A DNA stretch of 64,000 bases from the NCBI RefSeq assembly GCF_009931435.1, contig NZ_CP043414.1; one strand, given 5' to 3'. Below are positions 3,305 to 64,000 of the stretch, piece after piece (the stretch's first letter is position 1; every line of letters starts with the position of its first letter). Below the pieces are notes generated by a model, which was not told the DNA's origin, made no database searches, and saw only the letters and a program-made list of their open reading frames with translations. Made by a program: the position numbers and the translations under genes. The DNA comes from Escherichia coli. Its GTDB lineage: Bacteria; Pseudomonadota; Gammaproteobacteria; Enterobacterales; Enterobacteriaceae.

Positions 3305-4705
3305 ATGCCACATTCCTACGATTACGATGCCATAGTAATAGGTTCCGGCCCCGGCGGCGAAGGCGCTGCAATGGGCCTGGTTAAGCAAGGTGCGCGCGTC
3401 GCAGTTATCGAGCGTTATCAAAATGTTGGCGGCGGTTGCACCCACTGGGGCACCATCCCGTCGAAAGCTCTCCGTCACGCCGTCAGCCGCATTATAGAAT
3501 TTAATCAAAACCCACTTTACAGCGACCATTCCCGACTGCTCCGCTCTTCTTTTGCCGATATCCTTAACCATGCCGATAACGTGATTAATCAACAAACACG
3601 TATGCGTCAGGGATTTTACGAACGTAATCACTGTGAAATATTGCAGGGGAACGCTCGCTTTGTTGACGAGCATACGTTGGCGCTGGATTGCCCGGACGGC
3701 AGCGTCGAAACACTAACCGCTGAAAAATTTGTTATTGCCTGTGGTTCTCGCCCTTATCATCCAACAGATGTTGATTTCACCCATCCACGCATTTACGACA
3801 GCGACTCAATTCTTAGCATGCACCACGAACCGCGCCATGTACTTATCTATGGTGCTGGAGTGATCGGCTGTGAATATGCGTCGATCTTCCGCGGTATGGA
3901 TGTAAAAGTGGATCTGATCAACACCCGCGATCGTCTGCTGGCGTTTCTCGATCAGGAGATGTCAGATTCTCTCTCCTATCACTTCTGGAACAGTGGCGTA
4001 GTGATTCGTCACAACGAAGAGTACGAAAAGATCGAAGGCTGTGACGACGGTGTGATTATGCATCTGAAGTCGGGCAAAAAGCTGAAAGCCGACTGTCTTC
4101 TCTATGCCAACGGTCGTACCGGTAATACCGATTCGCTGGCGTTACAGAACATTGGGCTGGAAACTGACAGTCGTGGACAGCTGAAGGTCAACAGCATGTA
4201 TCAGACCGCACAGCCACACGTTTACGCGGTGGGCGACGTGATTGGTTATCCGAGCCTGGCGTCGGCGGCCTATGACCAGGGGCGCATTGCCGCGCAGGCG
4301 CTGGTGAAAGGCGAAGCCACCGCACATCTGATTGAAGATATCCCTACCGGTATTTACACCATCCCGGAAATCAGCTCTGTGGGCAAAACCGAACAGCAGC
4401 TGACCGCGATGAAAGTGCCATATGAAGTGGGCCGCGCCCAGTTCAAACATCTGGCACGCGCACAAATCGTCGGCATGAACGTGGGCACGCTGAAAATTTT
4501 GTTCCATCGGGAAACAAAAGAGATTCTGGGCATTCACTGCTTTGGCGAGCGCGCTGCCGAAATTATTCATATCGGTCAGGCGATTATGGAACAGAAAGGT
4601 GGCGGCAACACTATTGAGTACTTCGTCAACACCACCTTTAACTACCCGACGATGGCGGAAGCCTATCGGGTAGCCGCGTTAAACGGTTTAAACCGCCTGT
4701 TTTAA
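3305..4705 (+). CDS. sthA: Soluble pyridine nucleotide transhydrogenase
   Basis: 466-aa [28 protein letters not shown] with FAD/NAD-binding GxGxxG motifs; divergent from fabR. Confidence 0.95.
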
Positions 4706-5605
4706 CACTTTATCGAAATGGCCATCCATTCTTGCGCGGATGGCCTCTGCCAGCTGCTCATAGCGGCTGCGCAGCGGTGAGCCCGGACGATAAACCAGGC
4801 CAATAGTGCGGCGTGGTTCCGGCTTAATACACGGCAAATAAACAACCCCATCGCGTTTGCGCTCCGGCGGCACAGCCAGTGCAGGCAGTAAAGTGATCCC
4901 GCTACCTGCCGCCACCATGTTGCGCAGAGTTTCCAGGCTGGTCGCGCGGAAGTGTGTATCTTCATCCGCCCCGGCTTCAAAGCAGAAACCCATTGCCTGA
5001 TCGCGCAAACAGTGACCATCTTCCAGCATCAGCAGTTTTTCCCCTGCCAGATCGGCCATCGGTACGCATTCGCGGTTCGCCCACGGGTGATCTTCATAGA
5101 TAGCCAGCAACATTGGCTCATCAAACAACGGCACTTCAATGAATGCTTCGCTCTCTTTCACCAGCGCGAGGATCACGCAATCGAGTTTGCCGCTGTCCAG
5201 TTGCGCCAGTAACTGGTGGGTCTGTGCTTCATGCAGATACATTTCCAGCTTTGGAAAGGTCTGGTGCAGCATCGGGATAATATGCGGTAACAGGTAAGGC
5301 CCAACCGTTGGAATCAAACCAATATGCAGCGGTCCGGACATCGTCTCACCCTGCTGGCTTGCCATCTCTTTAAGGACTTTCACCTCACGCAGCACGGTAC
5401 GCGCCTGATCCACCAGCAGCATTCCCGCCTGGGTGAACAACACTTTACGGCTGGTCCGCTCCAGCAACATCACGCCCAGCTCATCTTCCAGCTTACGAAT
5501 TTGCCCGCTAAGCGTCGGCTGGCTAACGTGGCAGGAGTCTGCCGCACGCCGAAAATGGCGGTGTTCAGCCAATGCCACCAGGTACTCAAGATCACGAATA
5601 TTCAT
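4688..5605 (-). CDS. oxyR: LysR-family hydrogen peroxide-responsive regulator OxyR
   Basis: ORF 4688..5635; start placed at [44 protein letters not shown] (305 aa). Its 3' end overlaps the 3' end of sthA by about 18 nt, convergently. Confidence 0.95.
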
Positions 5606-5700: not shown

Positions 5701-5816
5701 GAAACGGAGCGGCACCTCTTTAACCCTTGAAGTCACTGCCCGTTTCGAGAGTTTCTCAACTCGAATAACTAAAGCCAACGTGAACTTTTGCGGATCTCCA
5801 GGATCCGCTTTTTTTT
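5701..5816 (+). ncRNA. oxyS: OxyS small regulatory RNA with its rho-independent terminator
   Basis: gaaacggagcggcacctctttaacccttgaagtcactgcccgtttcgagagtttctcaactcgaataactaaagccaacgtgaacttttgcggatctccaggatccgc followed by a T-run; divergent from oxyR. Confidence 0.85.
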
Positions 5817-5855
5817 ATTCTACAGGCCCACAGCAAGAGAGCCTGATAGTAACAG

Positions 5856-7139
5856 TTACTCAATCCGATCTTTGACAATAAAGAAGTAACACAGCGCCCC
5901 GGTGAATGTCACACAGGCCGCGATAACCAGCGCCAGATTAAACGAGTGCGTGGTATCCACTACCCAACCGGTTACGATCGGAGCAAAGGAAGCAAAAACA
6001 AAACTGCCAAAGTTTTGAATCCCGGCGATGGAAGCCACTTTTGTTTCTGACACCATCACCTGCACCAGTCCCCATGCAGATGTTCCCGCGAAATGCACGC
6101 AGAACAGCGCCATTGAGATAAACGCTACAGCCTGGGCTGGCGAGGAGGATTGCACGACCAGCAACGTGCCTAATGCCGACATCATCAAACCGCAGACAAT
6201 AGCCGTTTTACGCGTCTTCGCCAGGTCGTAGCCTTTTTTCGCCAGCCGATCGACAACAATACCGTTAACCCACATCCCGACCGCCGCCGCGAGGAAAGGA
6301 ATCGCCGCCACCCAACCGGTTTTCGCCAGACTGAAGCCTTGCTCGGCTTGTAAATAACCGGGTAACCACGCGATGTAGAGCCAACCGGTATAATTGACGC
6401 CAGAGAAACCTAAAATCATCCCCCAGGTTGTCCGATGCTTAAACAGCGCCAGCCACTCGCTAAATTGTAATTGTGGACGCGGTTTAACCGGCGCGGAGAG
6501 ATAGGTCCGTTCTTCGTCGGTCAGGACAAACTGCGCCCGGTTGCGATACCACGCGTACCAACAGATCCCAACCAGAATCCCCGCCACGCCGATGATGACG
6601 AACATTGCCCGCCAGCCCCATGCCAGCTGCATCAATACAAGAGCAGGAGGCGCAATAGCCTGACCGATAACGGTAGATGAGTTAAAAATCCCCAGCGCCG
6701 TGCCGCGTTCTTTTTGCGCATACCAGTCGGTGATCGACTTTACTCCCGCAGGCATAAATGGCGCTTCGCCAATACCCAGACCGATACGCATTAAAATAAA
6801 GTGGCTAAAAGAATTAACCATTCCTGTTAATGCCTGCATTAATGACCAGAATATTAAGCCTGCGCCTAAAACTATTCGTGGGCCAAAGCGGTCTAGCAAA
6901 ATACCGGAAGGGAGTTGTGAAAAACCATAAGACAGAGAAAATGCAGAAAGCAAAACGCCAAATTCTGTCGCCGATAATCCTAACTCGCCACGAATCGCTT
7001 CGCCTGCCACGCTCAATGACGAACGGTCGAGGAAATTAACGATCCCCGCCATAAATAATAAAACCAGCGTTACTGTCTGAATACGACGAATCCGTTGCGG
7101 TTTATTACCCGCAACACTGGTTGACACATCAACGTCCAT
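5856..7139 (-). CDS. MFS transporter of the anion:cation symporter type (hexuronate/sugar-acid transporter-like, DgoT/GudP/ExuT-like)
   Basis: 427-aa ORF with about 12 hydrophobic segments; N-terminal region LVLLFMAGIVNFLDRSSLSVAGEAIRGELGLSATEFGVLLSAFSLSYGFSQLPSGILLDRFGPR is typical of this family. Not in the K-12 oxyS-argH interval. Confidence 0.85.
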   Translation of the reverse strand: MDVDVSTSVAGNKPQRIRRIQTVTLVLLFMAGIVNFLDRSSLSVAGEAIRGELGLSATEFGVLLSAFSLSYGFSQLPSGILLDRFGPRIVLGAGLIFWSLMQALTGMVNSFSHFILMRIGLGIGEAPFMPAGVKSITDWYAQKERGTALGIFNSSTVIGQAIAPPALVLMQLAWGWRAMFVIIGVAGILVGICWYAWYRNRAQFVLTDEERTYLSAPVKPRPQLQFSEWLALFKHRTTWGMILGFSGVNYTGWLYIAWLPGYLQAEQGFSLAKTGWVAAIPFLAAAVGMWVNGIVVDRLAKKGYDLAKTRKTAIVCGLMMSALGTLLVVQSSSPAQAVAFISMALFCVHFAGTSAWGLVQVMVSETKVASIAGIQNFGSFVFASFAPIVTGWVVDTTHSFNLALVIAACVTFTGALCYFFIVKDRIE

Positions 7140-7205
7140 TTTTAGCTCCTTGAGCGGAATTAATCGATTTGCTGACTATTCAGAAAATAATTAAGCGAAC
7201 CGTTA

Positions 7206-8420
7206 TTACCAGTTCCACAATGTGCCATCTTCCAGTCGTGCGACGGGGAGATACGCCGGGTCATACGGATATTTCGCCGCCAGTTTCTCATCGAAAGAAA
7301 TACCCAGCCCCGGTTCATCGCCTGGGTGCATATAACCTTCATCGAAGCGCCAGCTGTGCGGGAAGACTTCAAGCATTTGTTCGGAATAGCCCATGTACTC
7401 CTGAACACCAAAGTTTGGCACCCAGAGGTCAAAATGCAGCGCCGCCGCATGACAAACAGGCGATAAATCTGAAGGGCCATGCGAACCGGTACGTACCTGA
7501 TAAAGCGATGCAAAATCGGCAATCCGTCGCATCCCGGTAATGCCGCCTGCATGGGTAATCGTCGTGCGAATATAGTCAATCAGCTGCTCTTCGATTAACT
7601 GCTTGCAGTCCCAGATACTGTTAAACACTTCACCGACCGCAATCGGCGTCACAGTATGCTGGCGAATCAGACGAAAACATTCCTGGTTCTCGGCAGGCGT
7701 CGGATCTTCCATCCACAACAGGCGGTAATCCTCAATGCTCTTCCCAAAGCGCGCCGCTTCGATAGGAGTCAGGCGATGGTGCATGTCATGCAACAGATGT
7801 TCGTTAAAACCGAACTTATTACGCACCGCTTCAAATAACTTCGGTGTAAAATCGAGATACTTTTCTGAAGACCACAACTGCTCTTCCGGCCACAGGCCTT
7901 TGGTTGCCGGTTCATACGCCAGTCCTTTGCCCTTCGCCAGGCCATAAGTGGTTTGCATACCCGGTACACCGCACTGCACACGAATCGCCTTAAAGCCCAT
8001 CTGCTGGTGCTTTGCATAGTCTTCAAGGACTTCATCAATCGTGCGCCCGGTGGTGTGGCAATAAACCATCACGCCTTCACGAGAAGCCCCACCAAGCAGT
8101 TGATACAATGGCATATTTGCCGCTTTGGCTTTGATATCCCACAACGCCATATCAATGGCAGAAATGGCCGACATCGTGACGGGGCCACGTCGCCAGTAAG
8201 CACCTTTATAAAAGAATTGCCAGATATCTTCGATACGGCTGGCATCGCGGCCAATTAATTGTGGACAAAGATGATCTTTCAGATAAGAAGCGACCGACAA
8301 TTCGCGACCATTTAATGTGGCATCTCCCAATCCACAAATTCCGCTTGCAGTGGTTATTTTAAGCGTAACGAAATTACGTCCTGGGCAAGTAACAAAAACA
8401 TCTGCAGCAATAATTTTCAT
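7206..8420 (-). CDS. Enolase-superfamily sugar-acid dehydratase, RspA/ManD (D-mannonate dehydratase)-like
   Basis: ORF 7206..8480; start placed at [47 protein letters not shown] (404 aa), closely resembling RspA/ManD N-termini. Likely co-transcribed with the MFS gene downstream. Confidence 0.85.
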
Positions 8421-8789
8421 TATTGCAATCTCCTGTGTTGTAAATAGACGCTTCAAACTTAATTTTACGCCTACTACCATACAAGAGAGAAAGGGCGATT
8501 ATTCAACCGTGATCACATTAAAAATAAAAATTTCCGCCGAGGAACAAAAATATCCTCAAATCTCACCTACACTATTAACTACCATCGTTAAAACAACGTG
8601 TTAAATAATCACATAACAAATTCCTTTAAGGAAAGGAGTTATAACAACAACAAAAGATAATCATATTTTACTTAATTCAATACGTATCGATAGGTTTATT
8701 TAAAAAGGATTTTTCGGAATGAGAGATGAAAAGAAGATACACAAGCAGGAAGAAATACGATTAATATTAGTTGCGGTAAGGGTAGCCGT

Positions 8790-8910
8790 TCCTCCCTTCC
8801 GCAACCCATTAACCGTTGAAGTCACAGACTATTTCAGGCATTTCTCAACTCAAAATAACGACAGCCAACGTGAACTTTATGGCTCTCCAGGATCTGCTTT
8901 GTTTTCCATC
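8790..8910 (+). repeat. Degenerate second copy of the oxyS 3' half (oxyS-like relic)
   Basis: 8813-8905 ccgttgaagtcacagactatttcaggcatttctcaactcaaaataacgacagccaacgtgaactttatggctctccaggatctgctttgttttcc aligns to oxyS 5725-5816 at roughly 75-80 percent identity by eye; the 5' part of oxyS is not recognisable. Confidence 0.7.
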
Positions 8911-10387
8911 AAACAACGGAGCTCAGCGCACTGGCTACCTGTTTAAAGCGAGCAAACCGTCGCCTGAGCATGTGTGCTTTTTCTACATTCGGTTCAAGAC
9001 GAATCACGTTGAGCTGCGTAGCCTTCATGGCCTGTTTGAATCCAGAATAAGCCCCTCCTCCTACTGCCGCACACATTGCAGCCGCTCTACAACCTGACTG
9101 TTCAATATCGACAATTTCAAGAGGCATTTTGCTGGCATCACAAAACATCTGCATCCAGATTCTGGAATGCGTTGGCCCGCCAGAGAAACGAATCGTTTGC
9201 AATGACTTATCAATCTCAATAAGACGGTCCTGATGCAACAAATGAGAAAAGACAACGCCCTGATAAATAGCGTACACCAAATCTTCTCTTTTATGATGCC
9301 CACACAGCCCCAAAAATCCCCCGCTTAATGCCTCATGGTAATTCGAGCCAAACAACCACGGGAAAAAGAGAATATCATTCTGTTTCTCATACCCTCGTTC
9401 CACCCACTCATTAATCACCCGATAACTGTCAGGAAGACCCGGTAAAAATTGCTGCAAGAACCATGTTAAATTACTGGCTGATGTAGGGCTTCCCTCATGG
9501 GCGAAAAATGTACCTGGAATGCTAAATTTCCCCCATACATAGGGATAATCAGAAGGAATAATGCGATCAAAGATTCGCGTTGCAATTGACCAGGTGCCAG
9601 CAACCGCACTTAACGTTGTACTGTCATAGATGCCAGAAGTGAGCGCCGCACCAACGACATCAAAAACACCACCAAAAACAGGCGTTCCGGCGAGAAGCCC
9701 ACATTGGCTGGCTGCTTCAGATGTCACAAACCCAGCTAAATCAGCGGAGCCAATAATATCGGGAACCTTACCCGCAACTTCCTTAATCTCAAATAGGCGA
9801 AAAAGTTCAGCATCATAAGCACTGGTATATTGATTATAAAAATTACTGCCTGAAATATTGGTTTCTTCACAAGCCAGTTTGCCAGTAAGCCGTGAACGTA
9901 TGTAATCATGAACCATCAAAATGGTTCCGATGCGGCCATAATTGTCAGTCTCATGTTTTTTCAACCAATGCAATAGTGCTACAGGGTGCGATGGCCAGAG
10001 CTGTTGCAGACTACGGTGATAACTTTCGCGGTCAATTCCTTGTTCTTTCCAGCTTGCAACCAGTTGTTGTGCGCGAGAATCAGAGGAAACAATGCCGTGT
10101 CGTAAGGGCTTACCTTGCCGGTCGAGCAGGTACAAACCTTTACCATGAGCAGAAAAACTGATGCCATCAATCTGACTCGCAGTAATATTGTTATCTGACA
10201 TCGACAGTGAAATGACCTGGCACGTTACCTTCCATAACGCCTCCATGTCGCGTTCGCAAAAACCAGGACATGGGCTTAACAGAGGTAACGCCTGCGAAGA
10301 GACACCTATTTCACGTCCTTCTGCCGTATAAATTCCCGCTTTGGTTTCTGTACCACCTAAATCGACACCAATAAAATACCGCTCCAT
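8909..10387 (-). CDS. FGGY-family carbohydrate kinase, L-xylulose/3-keto-L-gulonate kinase (LyxK)-like
   Basis: 492-aa ORF MERYFIGVDLGGTETKAGIYTAEGREIGV...; FGGY motifs and strong resemblance to LyxK throughout (DMAELW, HDYIR, EASPTSSGNL-like blocks). Confidence 0.85.
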   Translation of the reverse strand: MERYFIGVDLGGTETKAGIYTAEGREIGVSSQALPLLSPCPGFCERDMEALWKVTCQVISLSMSDNNITASQIDGISFSAHGKGLYLLDRQGKPLRHGIVSSDSRAQQLVASWKEQGIDRESYHRSLQQLWPSHPVALLHWLKKHETDNYGRIGTILMVHDYIRSRLTGKLACEETNISGSNFYNQYTSAYDAELFRLFEIKEVAGKVPDIIGSADLAGFVTSEAASQCGLLAGTPVFGGVFDVVGAALTSGIYDSTTLSAVAGTWSIATRIFDRIIPSDYPYVWGKFSIPGTFFAHEGSPTSASNLTWFLQQFLPGLPDSYRVINEWVERGYEKQNDILFFPWLFGSNYHEALSGGFLGLCGHHKREDLVYAIYQGVVFSHLLHQDRLIEIDKSLQTIRFSGGPTHSRIWMQMFCDASKMPLEIVDIEQSGCRAAAMCAAVGGGAYSGFKQAMKATQLNVIRLEPNVEKAHMLRRRFARFKQVASALSSVV

Positions 10388-10403: not shown

Positions 10404-11267
10404 CTAAATATTATCCCAGCCGGCAAGGCGCATTTTCTCTTCAATCCATTGACGTGCATGAATAATTTCTAATAGAGGTTCCGTCGCTTTTTCTGTCCAC
10501 ATTTCTATCAGAAACGTTCCGCGATAATTAAGATTACGCAGGATCTTAAATAATTTAATAAAATCTACACACCCTTCACCAAAAGGAACGTCACGAAATT
10601 GCCCTGGAGAATCAGGCGTTACTGGGTACGTATCTTTAAGATGGATTGCGGCAATTCGATCAATCCCCTTTACCAGCTCACTTTCCAGTTCATTACCCCA
10701 TGCGGTCAGATTGCCAACATCCGGATAAACGGTAAACCAAGGGGAATTAATTTTTGTATCCAGGACTTTCCATTTACTAATAGAATTAATAAATGGCGTA
10801 TCCATGATCTCTACAGCACACATAACTTGTGCCGCTGCGGCCTGTTCAGCTGTCCAGGCCATCGCATCTTCAAACCAGGCGATAGTTTCTTCATTCTGCG
10901 GCTCATAATAAACGTCATAGCCTGCCAGTTGGATTGTTCGAATCCCCAAATCCTGCGCCAGGCGTAACGCCTTCAACATAATCGTACGTGCCTGCTGACG
11001 AGTATCTCTATCATGGCTACCAAATGGAAAACGCCGGTGAGCAGACAGGCACATTGTCGGAATACGGATCCCCGTTTGCTGAATGGCGCTAATAAGCTCC
11101 ATACGCTCGGTGAGCGACCAGTCCAGGCGGGCGAGTCGTTCATCATTCTCATCTACCGACATCTCAACAAAATCAAAACCGCAAGATTTAGCCAGGGCTA
11201 GTTTCTCTACCCAACTGGTATTCCTGGGTAGCGCTTTTTCATAAATACCTAACGGGTGGCGTCGCAT
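10404..11267 (-). CDS. L-ribulose-5-phosphate 3-epimerase (UlaE/SgbU family, xylose-isomerase-like TIM barrel)
   Basis: 287-aa ORF LGIYEKALP...GFDFVEMSVDENDERLARLDWS...MCLSAHRRFPFGS...IQLAGYDVYYE...YPDVGNLTAW...LIEMW, matching UlaE/SgbU nearly block for block. Confidence 0.85.
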   Translation of the reverse strand: MRRHPLGIYEKALPRNTSWVEKLALAKSCGFDFVEMSVDENDERLARLDWSLTERMELISAIQQTGIRIPTMCLSAHRRFPFGSHDRDTRQQARTIMLKALRLAQDLGIRTIQLAGYDVYYEPQNEETIAWFEDAMAWTAEQAAAAQVMCAVEIMDTPFINSISKWKVLDTKINSPWFTVYPDVGNLTAWGNELESELVKGIDRIAAIHLKDTYPVTPDSPGQFRDVPFGEGCVDFIKLFKILRNLNYRGTFLIEMWTEKATEPLLEIIHARQWIEEKMRLAGWDNI

Positions 11268-12343
11268 TATTTTCCCTCACGAGTGATCAATTGTTGTTGA
11301 AAGATTTTCCGGCTCTTATTCATGTCACGCTGCAACTGCCATTTTTGTTTGATGAATTTAAATGCCAGTGCGGCGATCAATGTGATCCCCCATACCGCCA
11401 GATTGAAATGCAAACTAAGTCCCAACAGACTAAGGCCGGTAGCAATAACCTGAAGCACAAGTAAGGCACAAAAAACATGACTGACTTTACCCGCCCCACC
11501 GAATGGATCTGTGCCTCCCAATACAATTGCAAGAACCGTCAAGAGCAGATAGGAATCGCCATAGCCCATACGCGCCGAATTAAATCGCGCGAGCATAATA
11601 AGACCTGCTAATACACACAACATGCTGGATATAGCATATATAGCAATTAATACGCGGTCGGTGCGAATACCGCTAAACCATGTGGCGTTAATATTACTGC
11701 CACACATATAAATCGTTTTTCCCGTACGGGTTTTGCCGAGGAACAGAGCTAAAGCAACGGTGGTGACGATAAAAATTATCATCGGTACTGGGATCCCCAT
11801 GATAACTTCAGACCCAATACTGCGGACTACTGGTGGCATACCACTTAAAGCTGCCCCCTTAGTCAGGTAAATACCGATACCACTAATAATGGTCATGCTA
11901 CCCAATGTGACCAAAATAGGGTGAGCGCCTATATGAGAAATAATTGACCCAGTAATAGCTCCAATGATGATGGCAATAAGCATCGCCCCGACAATAGCCA
12001 GGAAGAGCCAAAACAACTGACTACCTGTAGATGCATCTGCGGGTACATATTGAATCAACAGCCAGGCCATAAACAGGCTGGTCAGATTCGCAGTACCGAT
12101 GATTGCCAGATTGAGCCCCCCGCTCAACATGGGTATAAACATCGCAAACGTGAGCAACCCAAGCTCTGGCAATTGAAATGCAATGCTCAGAAAAGTATTG
12201 CCGGTGAAAAAACGCCCCGGCATTACCAGACTAAATAACACCACCGCAATAAAACATATTGATAATAAGCCTGAACTGGTACCATCTAGTGGAAAAAATA
12301 TCCGCTTGTTCATTTCGATCCTCCCGTTAGACGAAACCAACAT
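11267..12343 (-). CDS. Sugar ABC transporter permease (ribose/xylose-type)
   Basis: 358-aa polytopic membrane ORF in an operon with a second permease and a two-domain ATPase. True start may be the internal MNKRIFF Met, since the first codons overlap the upstream permease. Confidence 0.8.
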   Translation of the reverse strand: MLVSSNGRIEMNKRIFFPLDGTSSGLLSICFIAVVLFSLVMPGRFFTGNTFLSIAFQLPELGLLTFAMFIPMLSGGLNLAIIGTANLTSLFMAWLLIQYVPADASTGSQLFWLFLAIVGAMLIAIIIGAITGSIISHIGAHPILVTLGSMTIISGIGIYLTKGAALSGMPPVVRSIGSEVIMGIPVPMIIFIVTTVALALFLGKTRTGKTIYMCGSNINATWFSGIRTDRVLIAIYAISSMLCVLAGLIMLARFNSARMGYGDSYLLLTVLAIVLGGTDPFGGAGKVSHVFCALLVLQVIATGLSLLGLSLHFNLAVWGITLIAALAFKFIKQKWQLQRDMNKSRKIFQQQLITREGK

Positions 12344-13319
12344 CAGTTTCTTTACGTTTTTTGTAATGGGTCACACAAATCGCCGAGACAATAACCACTC
12401 CAATAACGATATTGACGAAATAACTCGAGATGCCAATCAAATTAAGGCCGTTTTTAAGAATACCGATAAGAAATACGCCCATAAGCGTACCAATGACCGT
12501 ACCACGTCCGCCTGATAAACTGGCACCGCCCAATACCGCTGCAGCCAGCACATCCAACTCTCCGCCAACCAATGCATTCGGCACAACTTCACTCATACGA
12601 TAAGCTTGCAGCATTCCACCAATTGCTGCAGCGGCACCAAGATAACCATAAGCAAACAGATAAATTAGCGACACCCGAATCCCAATACGTCTTGCTGATT
12701 CGGTATTCCCTCCCACGGCATAAAGCTGACGCCCAATATGGGTTTTGTTCATTATCATCCACGTCAGAAATGCCATTCCCAGCATAACCACTAACGGTAA
12801 TCCGATCTGGTAATCTTCTCCGCCAAATTCAAAACTCAGGAAAGAACGCTGCGTAATCCACCAATCCGGTAAATCGTAAATACTGTGGCCATTAGTCAAC
12901 CACATCAACATACCGAACAGTAGCGACTGCATACTAATCGTAATGATGATGGAAACGACATTAAGGTAATAAATAAGAATAGCGTTTATCAAACCAAAAA
13001 TGATGCCAAGAAAAACAGCAAACACCAGACAGAAAAATGGATTTGATAGCGTTTCATTAAGCAGTAACGACGCCACAACATATTGCACAACCGAAGCTAC
13101 TGCTGCAAAAGAGATATCAATTCCGCCAGTAACCAATACGACAAATAATCCGAGGGCGAAAATACCCGTTACGGCATAACTTTCCGAGAGATCGAGCAAG
13201 TTCTGTATTGATAAAAACTCATCGCTCATGATGGAAAAAAATACCAGCATGAGAACAATGACCCATCCTAACCAAGCTTCGACTGAACGAGGAAACCGCA
13301 GCCGCATAAAGCTAACCAT
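12327..13319 (-). CDS. Sugar ABC transporter permease (ribose/xylose-type)
   Basis: 330-aa polytopic membrane ORF; start overlaps the ATPase stop (translational coupling). Confidence 0.8.
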   Translation of the reverse strand: MVSFMRLRFPRSVEAWLGWVIVLMLVFFSIMSDEFLSIQNLLDLSESYAVTGIFALGLFVVLVTGGIDISFAAVASVVQYVVASLLLNETLSNPFFCLVFAVFLGIIFGLINAILIYYLNVVSIIITISMQSLLFGMLMWLTNGHSIYDLPDWWITQRSFLSFEFGGEDYQIGLPLVVMLGMAFLTWMIMNKTHIGRQLYAVGGNTESARRIGIRVSLIYLFAYGYLGAAAAIGGMLQAYRMSEVVPNALVGGELDVLAAAVLGGASLSGGRGTVIGTLMGVFLIGILKNGLNLIGISSYFVNIVIGVVIVSAICVTHYKKRKETDVGFV

Positions 13320-14829
13320 TAATCACCTCCGCCAACTGCTGCTCGGTATAATTCGAAGGCAACAGCTCATTAATAATCTTTCCGCGCTTCATATGAAAAA
13401 TACGATCGCAGTTATAATAAGCTTCTGGTGCTTCATCAGTAATTAATATCACTGAAATACCCACACCTGAAAGCCGATGAATAAGCTGGTAAATACTATC
13501 TTTTGCGCCAATATCTACACCTACCGTTGGCGCATCCAGAATTAAAACCTTAGGTCGTGTTAAAATCCATTTAGCCAGGACAACCTTTTGTTGATTGCCG
13601 CCAGATAGCGTTGAAAGTGGATTATTTGGATCGGTGACTTTAATATCCAAATCCTGGATCCACTCCTTGACTAAGGTTTCTTTTCGATTTTCATCAATAA
13701 ACCCCGATGCCGTCTTTAAACGATCCAGAATCGAGAGCACCATATTATCGCTGATAGATTGGGGTAATACGGCCCCCAGTGTCAGGCGATCTTCTGAAAC
13801 ATATGCTATTCCCAGTTTTACCGCATGCGTGTTGTCTTTAATTGTAACGGGCTTACCTTCCAGATAAATATCACCACTATCTGGTCGAGTAATACCGAAA
13901 AGACTCAATGCTAATTCAGTTCTCCCCGCACCAAGTAAACCACACAATCCCAGAACCTCGCCCTGGTGTAGTTTTAGAGAAACATCTTCAAATTGCCCTT
14001 TTCTGCATAATTTGTTTAGTTCAAGGACTACTTTGCCTTCAACGCTATTTGGTAGCTTCTTCTGGTGGACTATAGTTTTTCCGGTCATTAACTCAGTAAT
14101 ATCGCCCGGAGAAAGTTGATTGGCAGCCCACGTTCCAATTATCTCTCCATCACGGATGACCGTAATCCGATCTGAAATTTCCTTAACTTCATCAAGGCGG
14201 TGGCTAACAAAAACTACGGTAATATTTTTATCGCGTAAGTAATTCACTGTGCGTAGTAATTGATTAACTTCTGTACGCGTCAATGATGCCGTTGGCTCGT
14301 CCATGATGACTAACCGGGCATCGGCAATCAGAGCCCGGCAAATCGCGACCTGTTGGCGTTGTGCAATCGGCAAATGTTGTACTAACGCATCAGGATCGAG
14401 ATTGAATTGCAGCTCCTGAATTATTTTCTGCGATACATCTCGAAGTTGTTTTTTTCTGTGCAGCCCTAAATATCCCTTCAGGTTGTATTCAAAAGCGATA
14501 TTTTCAGCAACAGAAAGATTTGGGAATAAAGAAAGATCCTGATATATCACCTGAATACCCAGTTCCCGAGCTTTATCAGGAGAAAGACGAGTCCAGGACT
14601 TACCATCTATAATAATTTCACTTCCCGAATCAGGGACATAAACACCACACAGCGTTTTGATCAGAGTACTTTTACCACACCCATTCGCACCAGCAAGACA
14701 ATGAACCTCACCTTTATTTAAGGTAAGATTGATATTCTTTAGAGCCCTATGGCCACCGAAACTTTTCGTTAGTGACCTTAGCGTCACTAATGGTTGCTCC
14801 GCATTCTTCTCTATAATATGAGGCATCAT
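13312..14829 (-). CDS. Sugar ABC transporter ATP-binding protein with duplicated ABC domains (RbsA/MglA type)
   Basis: 505-aa ORF with two Walker A sites (GANGCGKST and GLLGAGRTEL) and two signature motifs (LSGGNQQK region). Confidence 0.88.
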   Translation of the reverse strand: MMPHIIEKNAEQPLVTLRSLTKSFGGHRALKNINLTLNKGEVHCLAGANGCGKSTLIKTLCGVYVPDSGSEIIIDGKSWTRLSPDKARELGIQVIYQDLSLFPNLSVAENIAFEYNLKGYLGLHRKKQLRDVSQKIIQELQFNLDPDALVQHLPIAQRQQVAICRALIADARLVIMDEPTASLTRTEVNQLLRTVNYLRDKNITVVFVSHRLDEVKEISDRITVIRDGEIIGTWAANQLSPGDITELMTGKTIVHQKKLPNSVEGKVVLELNKLCRKGQFEDVSLKLHQGEVLGLCGLLGAGRTELALSLFGITRPDSGDIYLEGKPVTIKDNTHAVKLGIAYVSEDRLTLGAVLPQSISDNMVLSILDRLKTASGFIDENRKETLVKEWIQDLDIKVTDPNNPLSTLSGGNQQKVVLAKWILTRPKVLILDAPTVGVDIGAKDSIYQLIHRLSGVGISVILITDEAPEAYYNCDRIFHMKRGKIINELLPSNYTEQQLAEVING

Positions 14830-14892
14830 AATATTCCTGAATACGACTAAAGGAATTCCGGGTCAAATTTGACCCGGTGATTTACGGTAAAA

Positions 14893-15897
14893 TTACAAGC
14901 CTAGCTTCACTAAACGTCGTGTATTTTCAAGATCGAGCTTTTCTGGATTATCACTATAAATAGTGTTGTTATTAACCTTGATCTCGCCCATATCACCGAT
15001 TTTTACACCGTCTTTAATAGGTTCACCGTTCATCATTGCCGTCGCAACCTGGACAAAAACCTTACCCGCAATCATAGGGTTTGAAATATATCCCCCATCA
15101 ATGGCACCTTTTTCGAGTAGCTTAATTCCCTGACCTGGAGTGAAGGTTCCAAAAACGCAAATTGCATCATTTTTCTTCCGCTTATCAATAGCACGCCCCG
15201 CACCAATTGGTCCTTGTGAACCAAATGACATAATGCCTTTAAGATCTTTATATTTAGACATTAAATCGTTCGTCGTGCGCATTGAATCATCCACCGACTC
15301 AGCAACACCAAAACGATCTTCAACCAACGTCATATTTGGATAATGTTCTTTTTGATAGGCAATCGCGGCATTGGCCCAGTCATTTACCAAAGGCACAGTC
15401 AGACTGCCGACAAACATGGCGTATTTACCTTCTTCGCCCATACACTTCGCCATATCTTTCATATGATTGGCACCCATTGTCTGGGTATTTAACAACTCAA
15501 AATCCCAATCTGCATTTTTTTGATCTGGTGATTCGTGGGTAATAACTTTAATACCGGCTTCTTGTGCACGCTTAAGTACAGGTTCAAGAACCTTTGCATC
15601 GTTAGGAACAACACCAATAACATCCACTTTTCGTGCAATTAAATCTTCAATCGCCCGAACCTGTTCAGCTGGATCTGCCGTTGTAGGGCCGACCTGCCAT
15701 GCATCAACCCCCAATAGTTTTCCTTCATTTTTAATGCCTTGTTCCATCACATTAAACCAGGGAATTCCACCGACTTTTACTACTACCCCCATCGTAAAAG
15801 GTTTATTCGCTTTTTGTGATGTTACAGTCTGATCAGCCCATGCAGCAGTGGAAGATAATACGGTAGCAATAAGGCAGGGTAAGATTAATTTTTTCAT
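14893..15897 (-). CDS. Periplasmic sugar-binding protein of the ABC transporter
   Basis: 334-aa ORF with signal peptide MKKLILPCLIATVLSSTAAWA and a periplasmic-binding-protein type I fold pattern; first gene after the regulator. Confidence 0.8.
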   Translation of the reverse strand: MKKLILPCLIATVLSSTAAWADQTVTSQKANKPFTMGVVVKVGGIPWFNVMEQGIKNEGKLLGVDAWQVGPTTADPAEQVRAIEDLIARKVDVIGVVPNDAKVLEPVLKRAQEAGIKVITHESPDQKNADWDFELLNTQTMGANHMKDMAKCMGEEGKYAMFVGSLTVPLVNDWANAAIAYQKEHYPNMTLVEDRFGVAESVDDSMRTTNDLMSKYKDLKGIMSFGSQGPIGAGRAIDKRKKNDAICVFGTFTPGQGIKLLEKGAIDGGYISNPMIAGKVFVQVATAMMNGEPIKDGVKIGDMGEIKVNNNTIYSDNPEKLDLENTRRLVKLGL

Positions 15898-16019
15898 CGT
15901 AATTTCCTTAAGAAATAGTTCAGGTGTCAGGAAAACTCGATATAATATCGACCTGACTATTTATATAATTTATAATCCCTTAGGCATTGATTAATAATTT
16001 AGACAATAAATAACGCCTA

Positions 16020-16829
16020 TTATTTATCAACCTCCACAATGTTTAATTGTGGAAATTGTGTTCGATACCGAGTATCTGTACAAACATTAGTCACCAGAAT
16101 ATCGATTTCATCCAGCGTGCATATTTTACTAAATGCATACTGTTCAAACTTAGTGGAGTCGACCAGCAATATTTTTTGTCCTGACACCTGAAGCATCACC
16201 TGTTTAAGTCTGGCATTAATTTCACTGCCATCGCGGACACCATTCCCCAGATTCAACCCCTGGCATGAAAAGAAAAAACTGTTGATTTGAAAATTTCGGA
16301 TCGCACTCTCTGCAACCGGGCCATGAAAATCATCATGTCGCTCAGAATACTCACCACCGATACCAATAATTCGAACTCGATCACGGCAAGCTAACGCCTG
16401 AATTATCCGTAATGAATTTGTAACTACGGTAACATCTATATCGGGAATTTGACGAGCTAAAAACCAACAAGTACTACTGTTATCCATTAAAATACAATCA
16501 CCAGGGTGAATAAATTGCAATGCGGCCTTCGCAATTCTGGCTTTTATATCAGGATTTTCTTCAGTCCGTTTACGGAATGATTCCGCACGATCGATACTAT
16601 TATCTTGCCACGCATTATCGGCGAGCATAACCGGAGCGCTATCAGATGAATCCAGAGCGACCGCGCCACCAAAGCTACGGATTAACTTTTTGTTGCGCTC
16701 CAGTACCGTTAAATCCCGACGAATTGTCTCAGGAGACGCTTTAAATAATCGTGATAATTCAGTTACCCGCACAGCACCTTGTTTTTGTACATGTGCGCAT
16801 ATCATTTTATGGCGCTCTGCCTGCAACAT
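16020..16829 (-). CDS. DeoR-family transcriptional regulator
   Basis: 269-aa ORF with N-terminal HTH (VRVTELSRLFKASPETIRRDLTVLERNKKLIRSFGGA) and a DeoR C-terminal sugar-phosphate-binding region. Confidence 0.85.
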   Translation of the reverse strand: MLQAERHKMICAHVQKQGAVRVTELSRLFKASPETIRRDLTVLERNKKLIRSFGGAVALDSSDSAPVMLADNAWQDNSIDRAESFRKRTEENPDIKARIAKAALQFIHPGDCILMDNSSTCWFLARQIPDIDVTVVTNSLRIIQALACRDRVRIIGIGGEYSERHDDFHGPVAESAIRNFQINSFFFSCQGLNLGNGVRDGSEINARLKQVMLQVSGQKILLVDSTKFEQYAFSKICTLDEIDILVTNVCTDTRYRTQFPQLNIVEVDK

Positions 16830-17270
16830 AGTATCGGTCCGTTATTATCAAATTAGCATGCTTATATAATTAACTGTTCCCTCATAAAATAAAGTGATAG
16901 GAATCAAGATTCATTTTATAATTATAATCGCAAACAGGAATGGTGATCTTTATCACAAATTAAATTGAGAACACTCTACTATTTGACATTACTTTGAGAT
17001 ATCGGTCACTAAATAAGTCTTATTCTGCCATCTAACGAAAAATTTAAATACAAAAACAAAAATAATCGGGCATAGCAATCGCTTCCATTCATGACCGAAT
17101 ACGCCCGAATAAAACCGTTTATACCCACTTATCCTCTTTCGTTGCCTTCTTACATGCCTTGAATATTTTACATTTCTTATATTCAGCGTAATTTAGGAAA
17201 CATAATTTATGAGCAAAAAAAGCCCAAACTCAAAAGTTAAAGTTTATTTATATAATACATACAGATTATC

Positions 17271-17975
17271 GTGGAGTTAAAAATGGATATGCTAAAGGAA
17301 AAAGTTCTTGCTGCGAATTTATCATTACCCCTTCATCAGTTAGTGACGTTTACCTGGGGAAATGTTAGTGGTGTTGATCGCGAAAAAGGTGTCATGGTTA
17401 TTAAACCTTCTGGGGTCGAATACAGCCAAATGGGCATTGCAGATATGGTGGTAGTGGATTTACAAAGTGGTGAAGTTATTGATGGACACAGGAAACCCTC
17501 TTCAGACACCGATACTCATCTGGCGCTATACCGTGCTTTCCCGGATATTGGTGGTATCGTTCATACCCATTCCCGACACGCCACAATATGGGCTCAGGCC
17601 GGAAAAGATCTCACGGCCTTTGGGACAACCCACGCTGATTATTTCTACGGCACTATCCCCTGTACACGCCCCATGAAGGATGACGAAATTAATGGACAAT
17701 ATGAATATGAAACGGGGCGAGTGATTATTGAAACGTTCAGACAACGAGAAATATCTCCCGCTGACATTCCGGCTGTTTTAGTAAACAGTCATGGCCCCTT
17801 TGCCTGGGGAACTGATCCCGCGAACGCCGTGCATAACGCCGTTGTACTTGAAGAAATTGCCTATATGAATCTCTTTACACAACAACTACAGCCCCATCTT
17901 ACGGCTATTCAACAGCCTCTACTGGATAAGCATTTTTTACGCAAGCATGGTGCCAATGCTTATTACGGGCAGTAA
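17271..17975 (+). CDS. L-ribulose-5-phosphate 4-epimerase (AraD/SgbE/UlaF class II aldolase family)
   Basis: 234-aa ORF; [41 protein letters not shown]...[17 protein letters not shown]...[16 protein letters not shown]...HSHGPFAWG...[17 protein letters not shown] is very close to AraD. Start may be one of the downstream Mets. Confidence 0.88.
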
Positions 17976-18024
17976 CCCTCTTAGCATGGCCTGGCGTTTT
18001 GCCAAGCCATAAATCGCCTAAGAC

Positions 18025-19398
18025 TTACTCCAACCGCGCCTGCGCAAAAGCAATCGCCTGCGCCACCTGCTGCGGTGAGACGCCGCCTTTTGCCGCACGC
18101 TTGTCGAGGCACGATTGCAGCGACAGAATCGGATAGACATCTTCGCCAATCACCTGACTGAATTTCTGCAACTCACTGAGCGGCAGATCTTCCAGCGGTT
18201 TGCCCTGACGAATGGCTTCCACCACCGCTTCACCAACAATATGGTGCGCCTCGCGGAACGGCACACCTTTCGCCACCAGGTAATCCGCCAGTTCAGTGGC
18301 GTTCGCATACCCCTGCTGCGCCGCTTCCTGGCAACGTGGGCGTTTCACCTGAATGCCGTCCAGCACCAGCGCCGCCATATGCAGGCAGTCCAGCCAGGTA
18401 TCGAGCGCGTCGAATAAGCCCTCTTTGTCTTCCTGCATATCTTTGTTGTAAGCCAGCGGCAAACCTTTCAGCGTCATCATCATGCCAGTCAACGCGCCCT
18501 GAACACGACCGCATTTACCCCGAATCAGCTCCAGCGCATCCGGGTTTTTCTTCTGCGGCATTAATGATGAACCGGAAGTCACGCGATCAGAAAGCTCCAC
18601 AAAACCCGCTTCGCCGGTGTTAAAGAAAATCAGATCTTCGGCAAAACGCGACAAATGCACCATACCGATAGCGGCGGCAGAAAGCAGTTCCAGCACGTGG
18701 TCGCGGTCAGAAACGCTGTCGAGACTGTTACGGGTCGCCGAGGCAAAGCCCAGCCAGCCTGCTAACTGTTCACGGTCGATTTCATAAGCCGTTCCCGCCA
18801 GTGCGCCACAGCCTAACGGGCTGACATCCAGACGCTTAAGCGCATCCTGCAAACGACTTTCATCACGCGCCAGCATCTCAACATAGGCCAGGCACCAGTG
18901 CGCGAACGTCACCGGCTGGGCGCGTTGCAGGTGAGTGTAACCAGGCATTACCGCGTCCTGATTATTCTGCGCGGTCTCGACCAGAGCGGATTGTAACTGT
19001 CGGTTAGCCGTCAGTAACTCGCTAACGGTATCTTTGCACCACAGTTTCAGGTCAGTCGCTACCTGATCATTACGGCTACGCCCGGTGTGCAGTTTTTTGC
19101 CTAACTGGCCCACTTTGTCGATCAGTTTGCCTTCTACCCAGCTATGGATATCTTCAGCGTCGCTTTCAAGAATTTGTTGTGGTCTGGCGCGAACATCTTC
19201 CAGCAGCACATTGAGCGCCTCTTCCAGTTGCACCTGTTCTTCTGCGGTTAACACGCCTACCGTTACCAGCGCTTTGGACCAGGCCACAGAGCCAACAATA
19301 TCCTGCTCCGCCAGACGGTAATCAAAGCGCAGTGAGTCGTTGAATTGTTTAAACCGTTGATCTGCTGCCTGGGTAAAACGCCCGCCCCAAAGTGCCAT
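18025..19398 (-). CDS. argH: Argininosuccinate lyase
   Basis: 457-aa [47 protein letters not shown], full-length ArgH. Confidence 0.95.
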
Positions 19399-19458
19399 AA
19401 CTCTGTTTCCTTATTTTGAAATTCAATGCCAGAAAGCTACGTCTCCGGCCAACAAAAC

Positions 19459-20235
19459 TTAAGCTAAAATCCGCGTACCCATCGGCATACCGTTAAACAG
19501 TGCCGGAAGCTGTTCCGCATGACGCCAGGAAGCGATATCTACCGGGCGGCCCAGCGTGCGCGCAGCATCCAGCGCCGCGTTCACTTTCACTATCATGCCG
19601 TCAGTAATAATGCCCTGCTCAATCAGTTGTTCTGCTTTCGCGGCGGTCATTTCGGCAATACGTTGCCCTTTGCCGTCGAGAATACCGCTGACATCAGAGA
19701 GCAAAATCAGATCTGCGCCCAGCGTTGCCGCCAGCGCCGTCGCCGCCTGGTCGGCATTGACGTTCATCAGTTGCCCTTCGTCTGTTACGCCAATGGAGCT
19801 GACCACCGGCAGATAACCGTTCTCCAGCAATGTGTTGATAAGCTTAGGCGAACCTGGCTGCGCCAGTCCAACATGGCCTAACTCTTCATCGAGCTGGGTC
19901 ACTTTTACGCTGTCGCCGTCACCAAGAAACAGGCCTACGCCAGCAATCTGATGTTTCTTCGCCCACGCCAGCAAGGTTTTATTTGCCGTTCCCGCCAGCG
20001 CCCCGGTGATAATGTCTATCTGATCCGCAGGCGTCACCCGCAGGCCATTTTTCTTTTTCACCGGCAGATTCAGCCCTTTCATTAGTTCATCCACCACGCA
20101 GCCGCCGCCGTGAACAATCACCAGCGGACGCTGATGTGACTCACGATAATTCACCAGTGCGCTAAACAGACGTTCCAGCGCCTCTTCGCTATCCAACAGT
20201 ACGCCGCCCAGTTTGATAATTAATGGATTCATCAT
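19459..20235 (-). CDS. argB: Acetylglutamate kinase
   Basis: ORF 19459..20313; start placed at [30 protein letters not shown] (258 aa). Confidence 0.93.
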
Positions 20236-20242
20236 TGCACCC

Positions 20243-21247
20243 TTAAATAAGAGACTGCGTTTCCGCATAGCCGAAACGAATATTGGCGCACTGTACCGCT
20301 TGTGCCGCCGCACCTTTCAGTAAGTTGTCTTCGGTCGCCACAATAATCAGATGCTCGCCCTGAACTGCAAACCCGATATCGCAAAACGGCAGCCCGACGA
20401 CATTTTTCAGCGCCGGAACGCCTTTGTCATACAACCGTACCAACGGTTTATGGGCATACGCCTGCTGCAACGCTTGCGCGACTTGCGCCTGGTTTACACC
20501 ATGCTTCAGGCGGCAGGTAATGGTTTCGAGAATGCCACGAGGGAAATTGCCCAGATGCGGGGTGAAAATCACGTCAGCACCGAGATGCGTGGCGATCTCC
20601 GGTTGATGGCGATGGGTAAAGACACCGTATGGTTGCAGGCTAACTTCGCAAAAGCTGTTTGAAATTGCCGCTTTACGTCCTGCACCGCTCACACCGCTGG
20701 TGGCGTTGATGACCGGCCACTGATTGAGGTCAAGGAGATCGGCGTCAATCAACGGTTTCAGCGCCAACTGCGCTGCCGTCGGATAACAGCCCGGCACCGC
20801 AATCAAGTTCGCTTCTTTTAATTTATTGCCGCACCACTCCGCCAGCCCATAAGCCGCCTGATCAAGCAGTTCCGGGTATTGATGGGTAAAGCCGTAATAT
20901 TTTTCATAGAAGGCGGCGTCATTAACGCGAAACGCGCCGGAAAGGTCGAACACCACACAGCCTGCTTCGAGAAATTGCGGCGCTAAATCGTGGCTAACTT
21001 CATGGGCGGTGGCGAGAAACACCACGTCCACCCCTGGGCTAAACTCGCTGATATCCGACATCGGCTGCAACGGCAGATCAACGACGCCTTTGAGCTGCGG
21101 ATGCAAATCGGAGATTAACTTTCCCGCATCATTGCTTTGCGCTGAGACAGTCAAAGCGGTTATGTTCATATGCGGATGGCGATTTACATAGGTCACTAGC
21201 TCTGCGCCAGCATAACCGCTGGCACCCACAATCAGCGTATTCAACAT
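20243..21247 (-). CDS. argC: N-acetyl-gamma-glutamyl-phosphate reductase
   Basis: 334-aa [38 protein letters not shown]. Confidence 0.95.
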
Positions 21248-21400
21248 CGGGGCTATTCACCTTCTTATGTCTGGTTGCCTGGTTAAACGTAAAACATTCA
21301 CCTTACGGCTGGTGGGTTTTATTACGCTCAACGTTAGTGTATTTTTATTCACAATTAATGCATGAATATTGATACTATCATGACCAGAGGTGTGTCAACA
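21248..21400. promoter_or_regulatory. Divergent argE / argCBH control region with ARG boxes
   Basis: AT-rich intergenic region containing tattcacaattaatgcatgaatattgatac, which resembles tandem ArgR operator half-sites; placement matches the known bipolar argECBH operon. Confidence 0.5.
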
Positions 21401-22552
21401 ATGAAAAACAAATTACCGCCATTTATCGAGATTTACCGCGCTCTGATTGCCACACCTTCAATAAGCGCTACGGAAGAGGCTCTCGATCAAAGCAATGCAG
21501 ATTTAATCACTCTGCTGGCGGGCTGGTTTAAAAATTTGGGCTTCAATGTGGAAGTGCAGCCCGTGCCAGGAACTCGCAACAAATTTAATATGCTGGCAAG
21601 TTGCGGACAGGGTGCTGGCGGCCTGCTGCTGGCCGGTCATACTGATACCGTACCGTTTGATGATGGGCGCTGGACGCGCGATCCGTTTACGCTGACGGAA
21701 CATGACGGCAAGCTTTACGGCTTAGGCACTGCCGACATGAAAGGCTTCTTTGCGTTTATCCTCGATGCGCTGCGCGACGTCGACGTCACGAAACTGAAAA
21801 AGCCGCTCTACATTCTGGCGACTGCCGATGAAGAAACCAGTATGGCCGGAGCGCGTTATTTTGCCGAAACTACCGCCCTGCGCCCGGATTGCGCCATCAT
21901 TGGCGAGCCAACGTCGCTGCAACCGGTACGCGCGCATAAAGGCCACATCTCAAATGCCATTCGAATTATGGGTCAGTCGGGCCACTCCAGCGATCCGTCG
22001 CGCGGGGTTAACGCTATCGAACTGATGCACGACGCCATTGGCCATATTTTGCAATTGCGCGATAACCTGAAAGAACACTATCACTATGAAGCGTTTACCG
22101 TGCCATACCCCACGCTCAACCTCGGGCATATTCACGGCGGCGACGCCTCTAACCGAATTTGCGCTTGTTGTGAGTTGCATATGGATATTCGTCCGCTGCC
22201 TGGCATGACGCTCAATGAACTTAACGGCTTGCTCAACGACGCGCTGGCGCCGGTGAGCGAACGCTGGCCGGGTCGTCTGACGGTCGAAGAGTTGCACCCA
22301 CCGATCCCAGGCTATGAATGCCCGCCAAATCATCAACTGGTTGAAGTGGTTGAGAAATTGCTCGGAGCAAAGACCGAAGTGGTTAACTACTGTACCGAAG
22401 CGCCGTTTATTCAGACATTATGCCCGACACTGGTGCTAGGCCCTGGCTCAATTAATCAGGCCCATCAACCTGATGAATACCTGGAGACGCGTTTTATCAA
22501 GCCCACCCGTGAGCTTATCACCCAGGTAATTCACCATTTCTGCTGGCATTAA
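21401..22552 (+). CDS. argE: Acetylornithine deacetylase
   Basis: ORF 21362..22552; start placed at [43 protein letters not shown] (383 aa). Confidence 0.93.
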
Positions 22553-22680
22553 AACGCAGGCTGGATAAGGCGTTTACGCCGCATCCGGCACCGTTGTCAA
22601 ACGCCAGCGCCGCAATAATGTCGGATGCGATGCTTACGCATCTTATCCGACCTACACTTTTGGTGTTATGTGCGGCGAAT
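22553..22680. repeat. REP (repetitive extragenic palindrome) cluster
   Basis: gcaggctggataaggcgtttacgccgcatccggcac and gtcggatgcgatgcttacgcatcttatccgacctaca are classical REP units. Confidence 0.7.
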
Positions 22681-62303: not shown

Positions 62304-62555
<252 letters not shown>

Positions 62556-62559
62556 CTAA

Positions 62560-64000
<1,441 letters not shown>

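Follow-up and report, generated by a model that had tools for sequence, protein, structure and literature searches.

The window, that is, the whole 64,000-nt stretch of the Escherichia coli chromosome that we analysed, has the gene order btuB-trmA-yijD-fabR-sthA-oxyR-oxyS, followed by a 12-kb insert and then by argH-argB-argC-argE-ppc. The insert carries two gene modules for sugar utilisation, referred to here as A and B, and between them lies a second, degenerate copy of most of oxyS, which we call the relic (Table 1). The only genes of module A are those for an MFS transporter and for a D-mannonate dehydratase (ManD), the latter having a close paralogue in RspA of the rspAB locus (about 91% protein identity). 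The nearest ManD homologue outside E. coli, at 93%, is found in Enterobacter, in an rspA-rspB-MFS locus that is not linked to oxyS. An attempt to trace the origin of module A through ManD homologues led no further than that Enterobacter paralogue locus.

Module B is a larger set of genes. The last gene of its operon encodes a kinase that RefSeq names 'FGGY-family carbohydrate kinase' and whose matches to xylulokinase-like NCBIfam models fall below the cutoff. The other minus-strand genes encode an L-ribulose-5-P 3-epimerase, two ABC permeases, an ABC ATPase, a substrate-binding protein and a DeoR regulator, and a single plus-strand gene (17271-17975) encodes an L-ribulose-5-P 4-epimerase. Judged by gene content and family names, module B looks like an uptake system together with a pentose pathway of the L-xylulose/L-ribulose-5-P type.

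Table 1. Features of the oxyR-argH region, in window coordinates
Feature	Position	Strand	Basis and remarks
oxyR	4688-5605	-	ORF list and RefSeq annotation of syntenic strains; divergent from intact oxyS
Intact oxyS with terminator T-run	5701-5816	+	Rfam OxyS; left copy of the direct repeat
Module A, MFS transporter	5856-7139	-	NCBIfam TIGR00893 family transporter; RefSeq annotation
Module A, D-mannonate dehydratase ManD	7206-8420	-	NCBIfam NF043051, 730 bits; RefSeq annotation
Leader/promoter segment upstream of manD	8421-8544	-	Near-invariant in strains with A only and with A and B
AT-rich spacer, right flank of module A	8545-8769	none	Allele deeply diverged from A-only strains
Strong hairpin (36 nt), right end of module A, abutting the relic	8770-8805	-	Folding
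oxyS relic (homologous to oxyS nt 12-116; right-hand copy of the direct repeat)	8801-8905	+	blastn, Rfam, folding
FGGY-family sugar kinase, at the end of the module B operon and convergent on the relic	8909-10387	-	ORF list
Rest of module B	10404-17975	mixed	NCBIfam; syntenic in Citrobacter/Atlantibacter between argH and oxyS
argH	18025-19398	-	ORF list, annotation; neighbour of oxyS in K-12, right border of the variable region

The copy of oxyS beside oxyR is a complete gene. There is one Rfam match to bona fide OxyS, which is full length (5701-5809, 133.4 bits), and the gene was taken as this match plus the terminator T-run. It folds into the canonical three hairpins (-33.5 kcal/mol, z -2.7), its OxyR-box promoter is conserved with Citrobacter, and the OxyR protein of the window is 100% identical to that of K-12. 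In stem-loop a of this gene (5719-5722), the window has three T residues (CCTCTTTAACCC) as against four in K-12 and in all other E. coli loci compared, which reflects either a true polymorphism or a homopolymer sequencing error.

When the intact gene (5701-5816) was compared with the 64-kb window by blastn, the relic was the sole secondary match, the next best having an E-value of at least 0.8. Nucleotides 12-116 of oxyS align with 8801-8905 on the plus strand at 79.2% identity over 106 columns (20 mismatches, 2 gaps, E 8e-20), and the Smith-Waterman score of the pair is 99, compared with 14.8 +/- 2.2 for 5000 shuffles. The two copies form a direct repeat (5712-5816 and 8801-8905, both on the plus strand), the relic lying 3.1 kb downstream of intact oxyS. 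The original prediction, which described a stretch of about 95 nt at 8813-8905 matching the 3' two-thirds of oxyS, is borne out as far as homology is concerned: the similarity is above chance, and the copy is diverged rather than identical. The extent has to be revised, since the relic starts at about 8801 rather than 8813 and covers about 90% of oxyS, from nt 12 through the terminator T-run. Its convergent position relative to the 3' end of the kinase gene was described correctly. The T-run ends at 8905 and the kinase stop codon occupies 8909-8911, with 3 nt between them, an arrangement like that of oxyS relative to argH in K-12 or to the kinase in Citrobacter and Atlantibacter.

The Rfam OxyS model (RF00035), run on 8600-9100 (501 nt), gives the relic 30.1 bits (E 2.5e-4), and the relic of the other main E. 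coli haplotype (represented by strain L001) reaches 35.5 bits; both lie below the gathering score of 75, so the covariance threshold does not place the relic among functional OxyS RNAs. The similarity is nevertheless significant, and it is collinear with most of oxyS and in the same orientation, as expected of an OxyS homologue that is a pseudogene. The Rfam global alignment would make the relic full length by placing 8776-8798 on OxyS nt 1-23. We rejected this extension, as the 5' similarity is at chance level (p 0.48) and the stretch is the 5' arm and loop of the module A hairpin, a structure conserved in strains that have module A alone.

This hairpin marks the right end of module A, with the relic starting at its foot, because it is also present in A-only strains, where it occupies the same place (6335-6370 in strains L002 and L003). 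On the minus strand it is predicted to fold at -22.7 kcal/mol (z -5.6). Between the two groups of strains, 7 of the 12 base pairs are changed on both sides with pairing kept; as this amounts to a single comparison of two groups, the covariation is suggestive and carries no statistical weight. In the L001 variant, a G-U pair preserves pairing on the minus strand alone (-20.5 versus -14.8 kcal/mol). On this structural prediction, kinase-operon transcripts are likely to have their 3' end or insulator in the hairpin, which may also shield manD from transcription reading through from argH or the kinase operon.

The genes of module A are 99-100% identical to those of the A-only strain L003, and this level is maintained up to about position 8545. 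Between 8545 and 8805, identity to A-only strains falls abruptly to about 77-84%, yet the sequences are still homologous. The segment immediately before the break, 8421-8544, shows 0 differences in 124 nt from L001 and a single variable column among four strains that represent both locus states, and divergence leaps to 9-22% directly beyond 8544. The invariance of this segment indicates either a strongly constrained leader/promoter or a common recombination boundary.

To the right of this flank, the relic has none of the features of a working 5' end. Six functional oxyS copies were aligned (E. coli, four Citrobacter and Atlantibacter), and they have in common a near-invariant OxyR-box/promoter block, whose motif TAGGTAGnATAGCAAnnAACGATTATCCCTATCAAGC is kept in all six (one residue off in Atlantibacter) and is missing upstream of the relic. 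The start GAAACGGAGCGG, common to the aligned functional copies except that of Atlantibacter, has no counterpart before the relic, and the relic likewise lacks the -10 element that the six copies conserve. Local alignment of the native oxyS upstream region with 8421-8808 remained at chance level (p 0.94 and 0.15), with nothing significantly similar upstream of about 8800. A consensus scan of 8300-9100 on both strands gave no promoter-like site, although the scan is strict and misses the manD promoter that must lie there. Unlike OxyS, which is expressed from an OxyR-activated promoter divergent from oxyR, the relic has no OxyR site and no adjacent oxyR, the nearest being 3.2 kb away. The predicted lack of a recognisable 5' end or promoter is therefore confirmed, and the absence of a recognisable promoter suggests that the plus strand of the relic is silent.

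The structure of the RNA has been lost as well. The relic folds at -11.5 kcal/mol with a z-score of +1.3, which is worse than its own shuffles, and 9 of the 26 base pairs of the OxyS model are non-canonical in the Rfam alignment. Unlike in OxyS, stems a, b and c are all damaged, and the three stem-loops that define the RNA, of which c serves as a Rho-independent terminator, are not retained. The terminator hairpin, predicted at -12.4 kcal/mol in intact oxyS and -12.8 kcal/mol in Citrobacter, is reduced to -0.9, -3.2 and -5.8 kcal/mol in three relic haplotypes, the value of the window being -0.9. A scan and folding found no terminator-like site in the relic on either strand, that is, no GC-rich hairpin followed by a U-run. 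Folding of both copies thus agrees with the proposal that the mismatches weaken the hairpin, and it speaks against the accompanying suggestion that the relic could act as a terminator.

The pattern of substitution is equally informative. Among 77 columns that are invariant in functional oxyS (five copies, at least three lineages), 17 are mutated in the relic. A comparison of the two main haplotypes in E. coli gives 8 differences in 100 positions for the relic and 20 in 225 for the adjacent spacer; at third codon positions, the same haplotypes differ by 2.6% in the kinase gene, 5.2% in manD and 6.5% in the MFS transporter gene. By this comparison, the relic appears to diverge at a neutral or faster rate, at least that of nearby third codon positions. 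There are four relic haplotypes, one of them with a 1-nt deletion, and each departs from the functional consensus in changes of its own. Because it has no 5' end, promoter or OxyR box, scores only 30 bits in Rfam, is mutated at 17 of 77 invariant positions, has damaged stems and diverges at a neutral or faster rate, we regard the relic, on these sequence characters, as a pseudogene in unconstrained decay. The original view that it is a non-functional remnant at the junction of modules A and B holds, with the qualification that it is a decayed homologue of most of the gene.

The relic and the kinase gene are found together in 145 of 5426 complete E. coli genomes (2.7%). All 145 carriers of module B also have the A flank and the relic, always in the order module A, relic, module B. 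Each carrier has one copy of the relic, on the chromosome and adjoining the module A flank. Nine carriers have the haplotype of the window and 136 that of L001. Module A without B is present in about 1640 further genomes, about 30% of complete genomes, in which no repeat follows oxyS, and K-12-like genomes have neither module. In E. coli, the gap between oxyS and argH is a recombination hot spot with multiple alleles, seen in three states: neither module, A only, and A with the relic and B. We found no mention of the relic in annotated carrier records, and nothing relevant in the literature on an oxyS duplicate, pseudogene or island at argH.

In A-only strains, the gap between manD and argH holds a REP/naRNA4-like element (27.9 bits in Rfam) and a different argH terminator, and Rfam gives no OxyS signal there. 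A more decayed relic in these strains was considered on the basis of a match at 23 of 29 positions to the 3' end of the relic, and was rejected (p about 0.1, no OxyS in Rfam).

Other genera show the native setting of module B. In a kinase scan of one genome per species (100,044 genomes), module B was found at other loci in Serratia, Erwinia, Pantoea, Yersinia and Providencia. Between argH and oxyS, with the same order and orientation as in the window, it was found in Citrobacter sp. MGH106, Citrobacter sp. Cu233, two C. amalonaticus genomes and Atlantibacter sp. RC6. These five genomes have the order argH-araD-deoR-SBP-ATPase-permease-permease-epimerase-kinase, then a full-length oxyS with an OxyR-box promoter, then oxyR-sthA, and they have no module A. 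Since the kinase gene in the four Citrobacter genomes and the one Atlantibacter genome is convergent on an intact, full-length oxyS, the relic stands at the native oxyS position of module B.

Between the kinase gene and oxyS, the Citrobacter and Atlantibacter genomes have a kinase terminator hairpin (GCCTGGC...GCCGGGCTTTTTT) that is missing in the window. The argH terminator hairpin of K-12 (GCCTGGCTTATCGCCGGGCTTTTTT, in the oxyS-argH spacer of locus L004) is homologous to this kinase terminator (11480-11540 in loci L007, L009 and L021). The argH/kinase terminator hairpin stays beside oxyS whichever gene precedes it.

The seven module B proteins other than the kinase share 81-95% identity with their Citrobacter and Atlantibacter counterparts. 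In the tree of module B proteins, E. coli falls outside the pair of Citrobacter and Atlantibacter, whereas for OxyR, SthA and ArgH it is Atlantibacter that falls outside. E. coli may have acquired module B long ago from an unsampled relative, or module B may be an old resident of the Escherichia lineage. The kinase forms a long branch, with 67-70% identity to the enterobacterial orthologues compared and 61% to that of Providencia, while the kinases of Citrobacter and Atlantibacter share 82-85% identity. The point at which nucleotide identity drops is exactly the kinase start codon.

The original prediction held that module B arrived together with a foreign oxyS homologue. As regards topology this is supported, the adjacency of kinase and oxyS being native in Citrobacter and Atlantibacter. 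The nearest relative of the E. coli kinase outside E. coli in the scan of 100,044 species genomes is at most 70% identical, and the cluster of kinases at 90% identity or more contained only E. coli in a search of 5.8 billion proteins. Searches of species genomes, proteins and metagenomes found no genome in which a kinase of the E. coli type adjoins an intact oxyS, and no donor of module B or of the relic was found in the 100,044 species genomes, 241 million metagenome records and 5.8 billion proteins. A scan of metagenomes for relic-type patterns returned only E. coli-like contigs with the A-relic-B arrangement and an unrelated genus (contig L030) that has a functional oxyS beside argH. A kinase with 88.8% identity in metagenome contig L035 proved to be an artefact of indels in a low-coverage assembly, the nucleotide identity being 98-99%.

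The functional oxyS nearest to the relic is in fact that of E. coli itself: the relic is about 80% identical to oxyS in every E. coli genome (73-74% in a gap-counting alignment). The oxyS of the metagenomic genus on L030 is about 79% identical over 72 aligned nt and 71-72% identical over the full relic span with gaps counted, and Citrobacter oxyS is 75-77% identical. The loop of the relic terminator, TCTCCAGGATC, is of the E. coli-specific type, and a character analysis gave seven E. coli-unique states against seven non-E. coli states, so alignment with the oxyS of other species does not allow a donor lineage to be named, as had been hoped. Because much of the divergence of the relic falls at positions that are invariant in all functional copies, it reflects decay rather than foreign ancestry.

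We think it likely that the relic is a dead partial oxyS (nt 12 to the 3' end) and the scar of the recombination that joined modules A and B. The ancestral locus would have been oxyR-oxyS-kinase...araD-argH in an Escherichia-like lineage bearing module B. Incoming DNA with the order oxyR-oxyS-module A would have undergone one crossover on the homologous oxyR/oxyS side, and the other joint would have been illegitimate, connecting the terminal hairpin of module A to about nt 12 of the resident oxyS, perhaps through microhomology between GCAAC and GCACC. Such an event would have placed a complete oxyS beside oxyR and left the 3' portion of the resident gene promoterless next to the kinase gene, where it would have decayed. 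The block comprising the A flank, the relic, module B and diverged arg genes would later have spread to about 2.7% of E. coli by homologous recombination. A single one-sided recombination is the simplest way to account for the duplicate.

The structure agrees in several respects with scars of homology-facilitated illegitimate recombination, in that a homologous anchor may be present in oxyR/oxyS or in argH, the junction is abrupt and may involve some 5 nt of microhomology, and sequence beside the anchor is duplicated. It differs from them in that the mechanism is deduced here from the end product alone, in which the junction at the hairpin foot (GCAAC versus GCACC) is seen, and in that the event is old. 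A recipient that already carried module B is favoured on comparative grounds, because of the synteny in Citrobacter and Atlantibacter and because module A at this locus is restricted to E. coli. A mirror-image event, in which module B with the 3' part of a foreign oxyS entered an A-bearing genome with its anchor in argH, would give the same end structure. Several observations count against the origin that we propose: the tree of module B proteins disagrees with those of OxyR, SthA and ArgH, the searches gave no genome with an E. coli-type kinase beside an intact oxyS, and the 60-nt kinase terminator seen in Citrobacter is gone from the window, which requires an extra deletion.

The principal alternative takes up the order of events implied by the original prediction: an E. 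coli already bearing module A (oxyS-module A-argH) would have gained module B one-sidedly, anchored in argH or the other arg genes, with a fragment that began at about nt 12 of the donor oxyS. In favour of this reading, the arg genes to the right of module B are 91-96% identical to K-12 as against 97-99.7% on the oxyR side, the tree of module B proteins is incongruent with that of the housekeeping genes, the kinase has that distant nearest relative outside E. coli, and the adjacency of kinase and oxyS is known from other genera; the relic also has some non-E. coli states, such as the extra A in GAAATAAC. Against it stands the position of the identity break. The diverged block does not begin at the relic but about 260 nt inside the A flank (8545-8805), and because identity breaks at about 8545, the block that came with module B already had the A flank fused to the relic. 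The affinity of the relic to E. coli oxyS, including the terminator loop, and the failure of the genome, metagenome and protein searches to yield a donor point the same way, and we consider this alternative unlikely. In view of the same break, the more specific claim that module A landed later between two copies of oxyS is not supported; it would moreover require two prior tandem oxyS copies.

Very little probability attaches to the idea that module A is what remains of an element which underwent site-specific integration in the 3' part of oxyS and brought a new 3' part with it, the relic being the displaced original one. The layout does recall the attR repeats of tRNA and tmRNA islands, with an intact RNA gene, inserted DNA and a direct repeat of the 3' portion that reaches the exact 3' end; unlike in such islands, module A (5817-8805) has no integrase or mobility gene, the repeat, at 105 nt and 79% identity, is not a short, near-identical att core, and the roughly 1640 genomes with module A after oxyS have no repeat.

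That the relic was retained for a function, whether as a terminator (for the kinase operon or in the oxyS direction) or as an antisense decoy that pairs with OxyS, is extremely unlikely. The relic would appear, on its sequence, to do nothing on its own strand. Antisense transcription of the relic is probable, because the interval from the kinase stop codon to the hairpin at 8770-8805 contains no other terminator; the antisense relic is probably carried in the untranslated tail of the kinase-operon mRNA, with the 3' end predicted at that hairpin. The predicted duplex between OxyS and the antisense relic reaches -117 kcal/mol, against -49 kcal/mol for shuffles, and includes a 16-nt perfect run in the single-stranded linker of OxyS. 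Set against this are the loss of the terminator hairpin on both strands, the neutral or faster evolution of the relic, and the 16-nt run, which is broken in the commoner haplotype (136 genomes). It is hardly credible that the tail of the kinase mRNA, which is about 80% complementary to OxyS with perfect runs of 16-17 nt, titrates or destabilises OxyS when the operon is expressed; if it did, the 2.7% of E. coli genomes that carry the relic would have catabolism of the pentose/L-xylulose type tied to the peroxide response.

As a partial pseudogene of oxyS, the relic is a recombination scar of an ordinary kind, and it leaves what is known about the function of OxyS as it was. Its value is that of a historical marker of the recombination hot spot between oxyS and argH, where it records oxyS as the native neighbour of module B. 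It also provides a clean example of a small-RNA gene that was partly duplicated through one-sided recombination and left to decay. For annotation, it carries the caveat that a second OxyS-like match in carrier strains is not a gene.

Several observations concern the surroundings of the hot spot. The flank comprising argH-argB-argC-argE (18000-22500), whose 91-96% nucleotide identity to K-12 is given above, is unusually polymorphic. The argH gene of the window is 95.5% identical to that of K-12 at the nucleotide level and 99.5% at the amino acid level, and this allele differs by 2-6% from all 5425 complete E. coli genomes with a match; among three reference strains without module B, argH differs by 1.5-3.6%. 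The further Rfam features of the window are all expected ones: a naRNA4/REP-type element between argE and ppc (22559-22652), the btuB cobalamin riboswitch (521-710) and an L31 leader (62523-62575). At the other end of the window, the first 500 nt or so, made up of the 5' coding part of btuB (minus strand), share only about 76.5% identity with K-12, and the value is the same against the two strains that otherwise match the window best, which indicates a highly divergent btuB allele.
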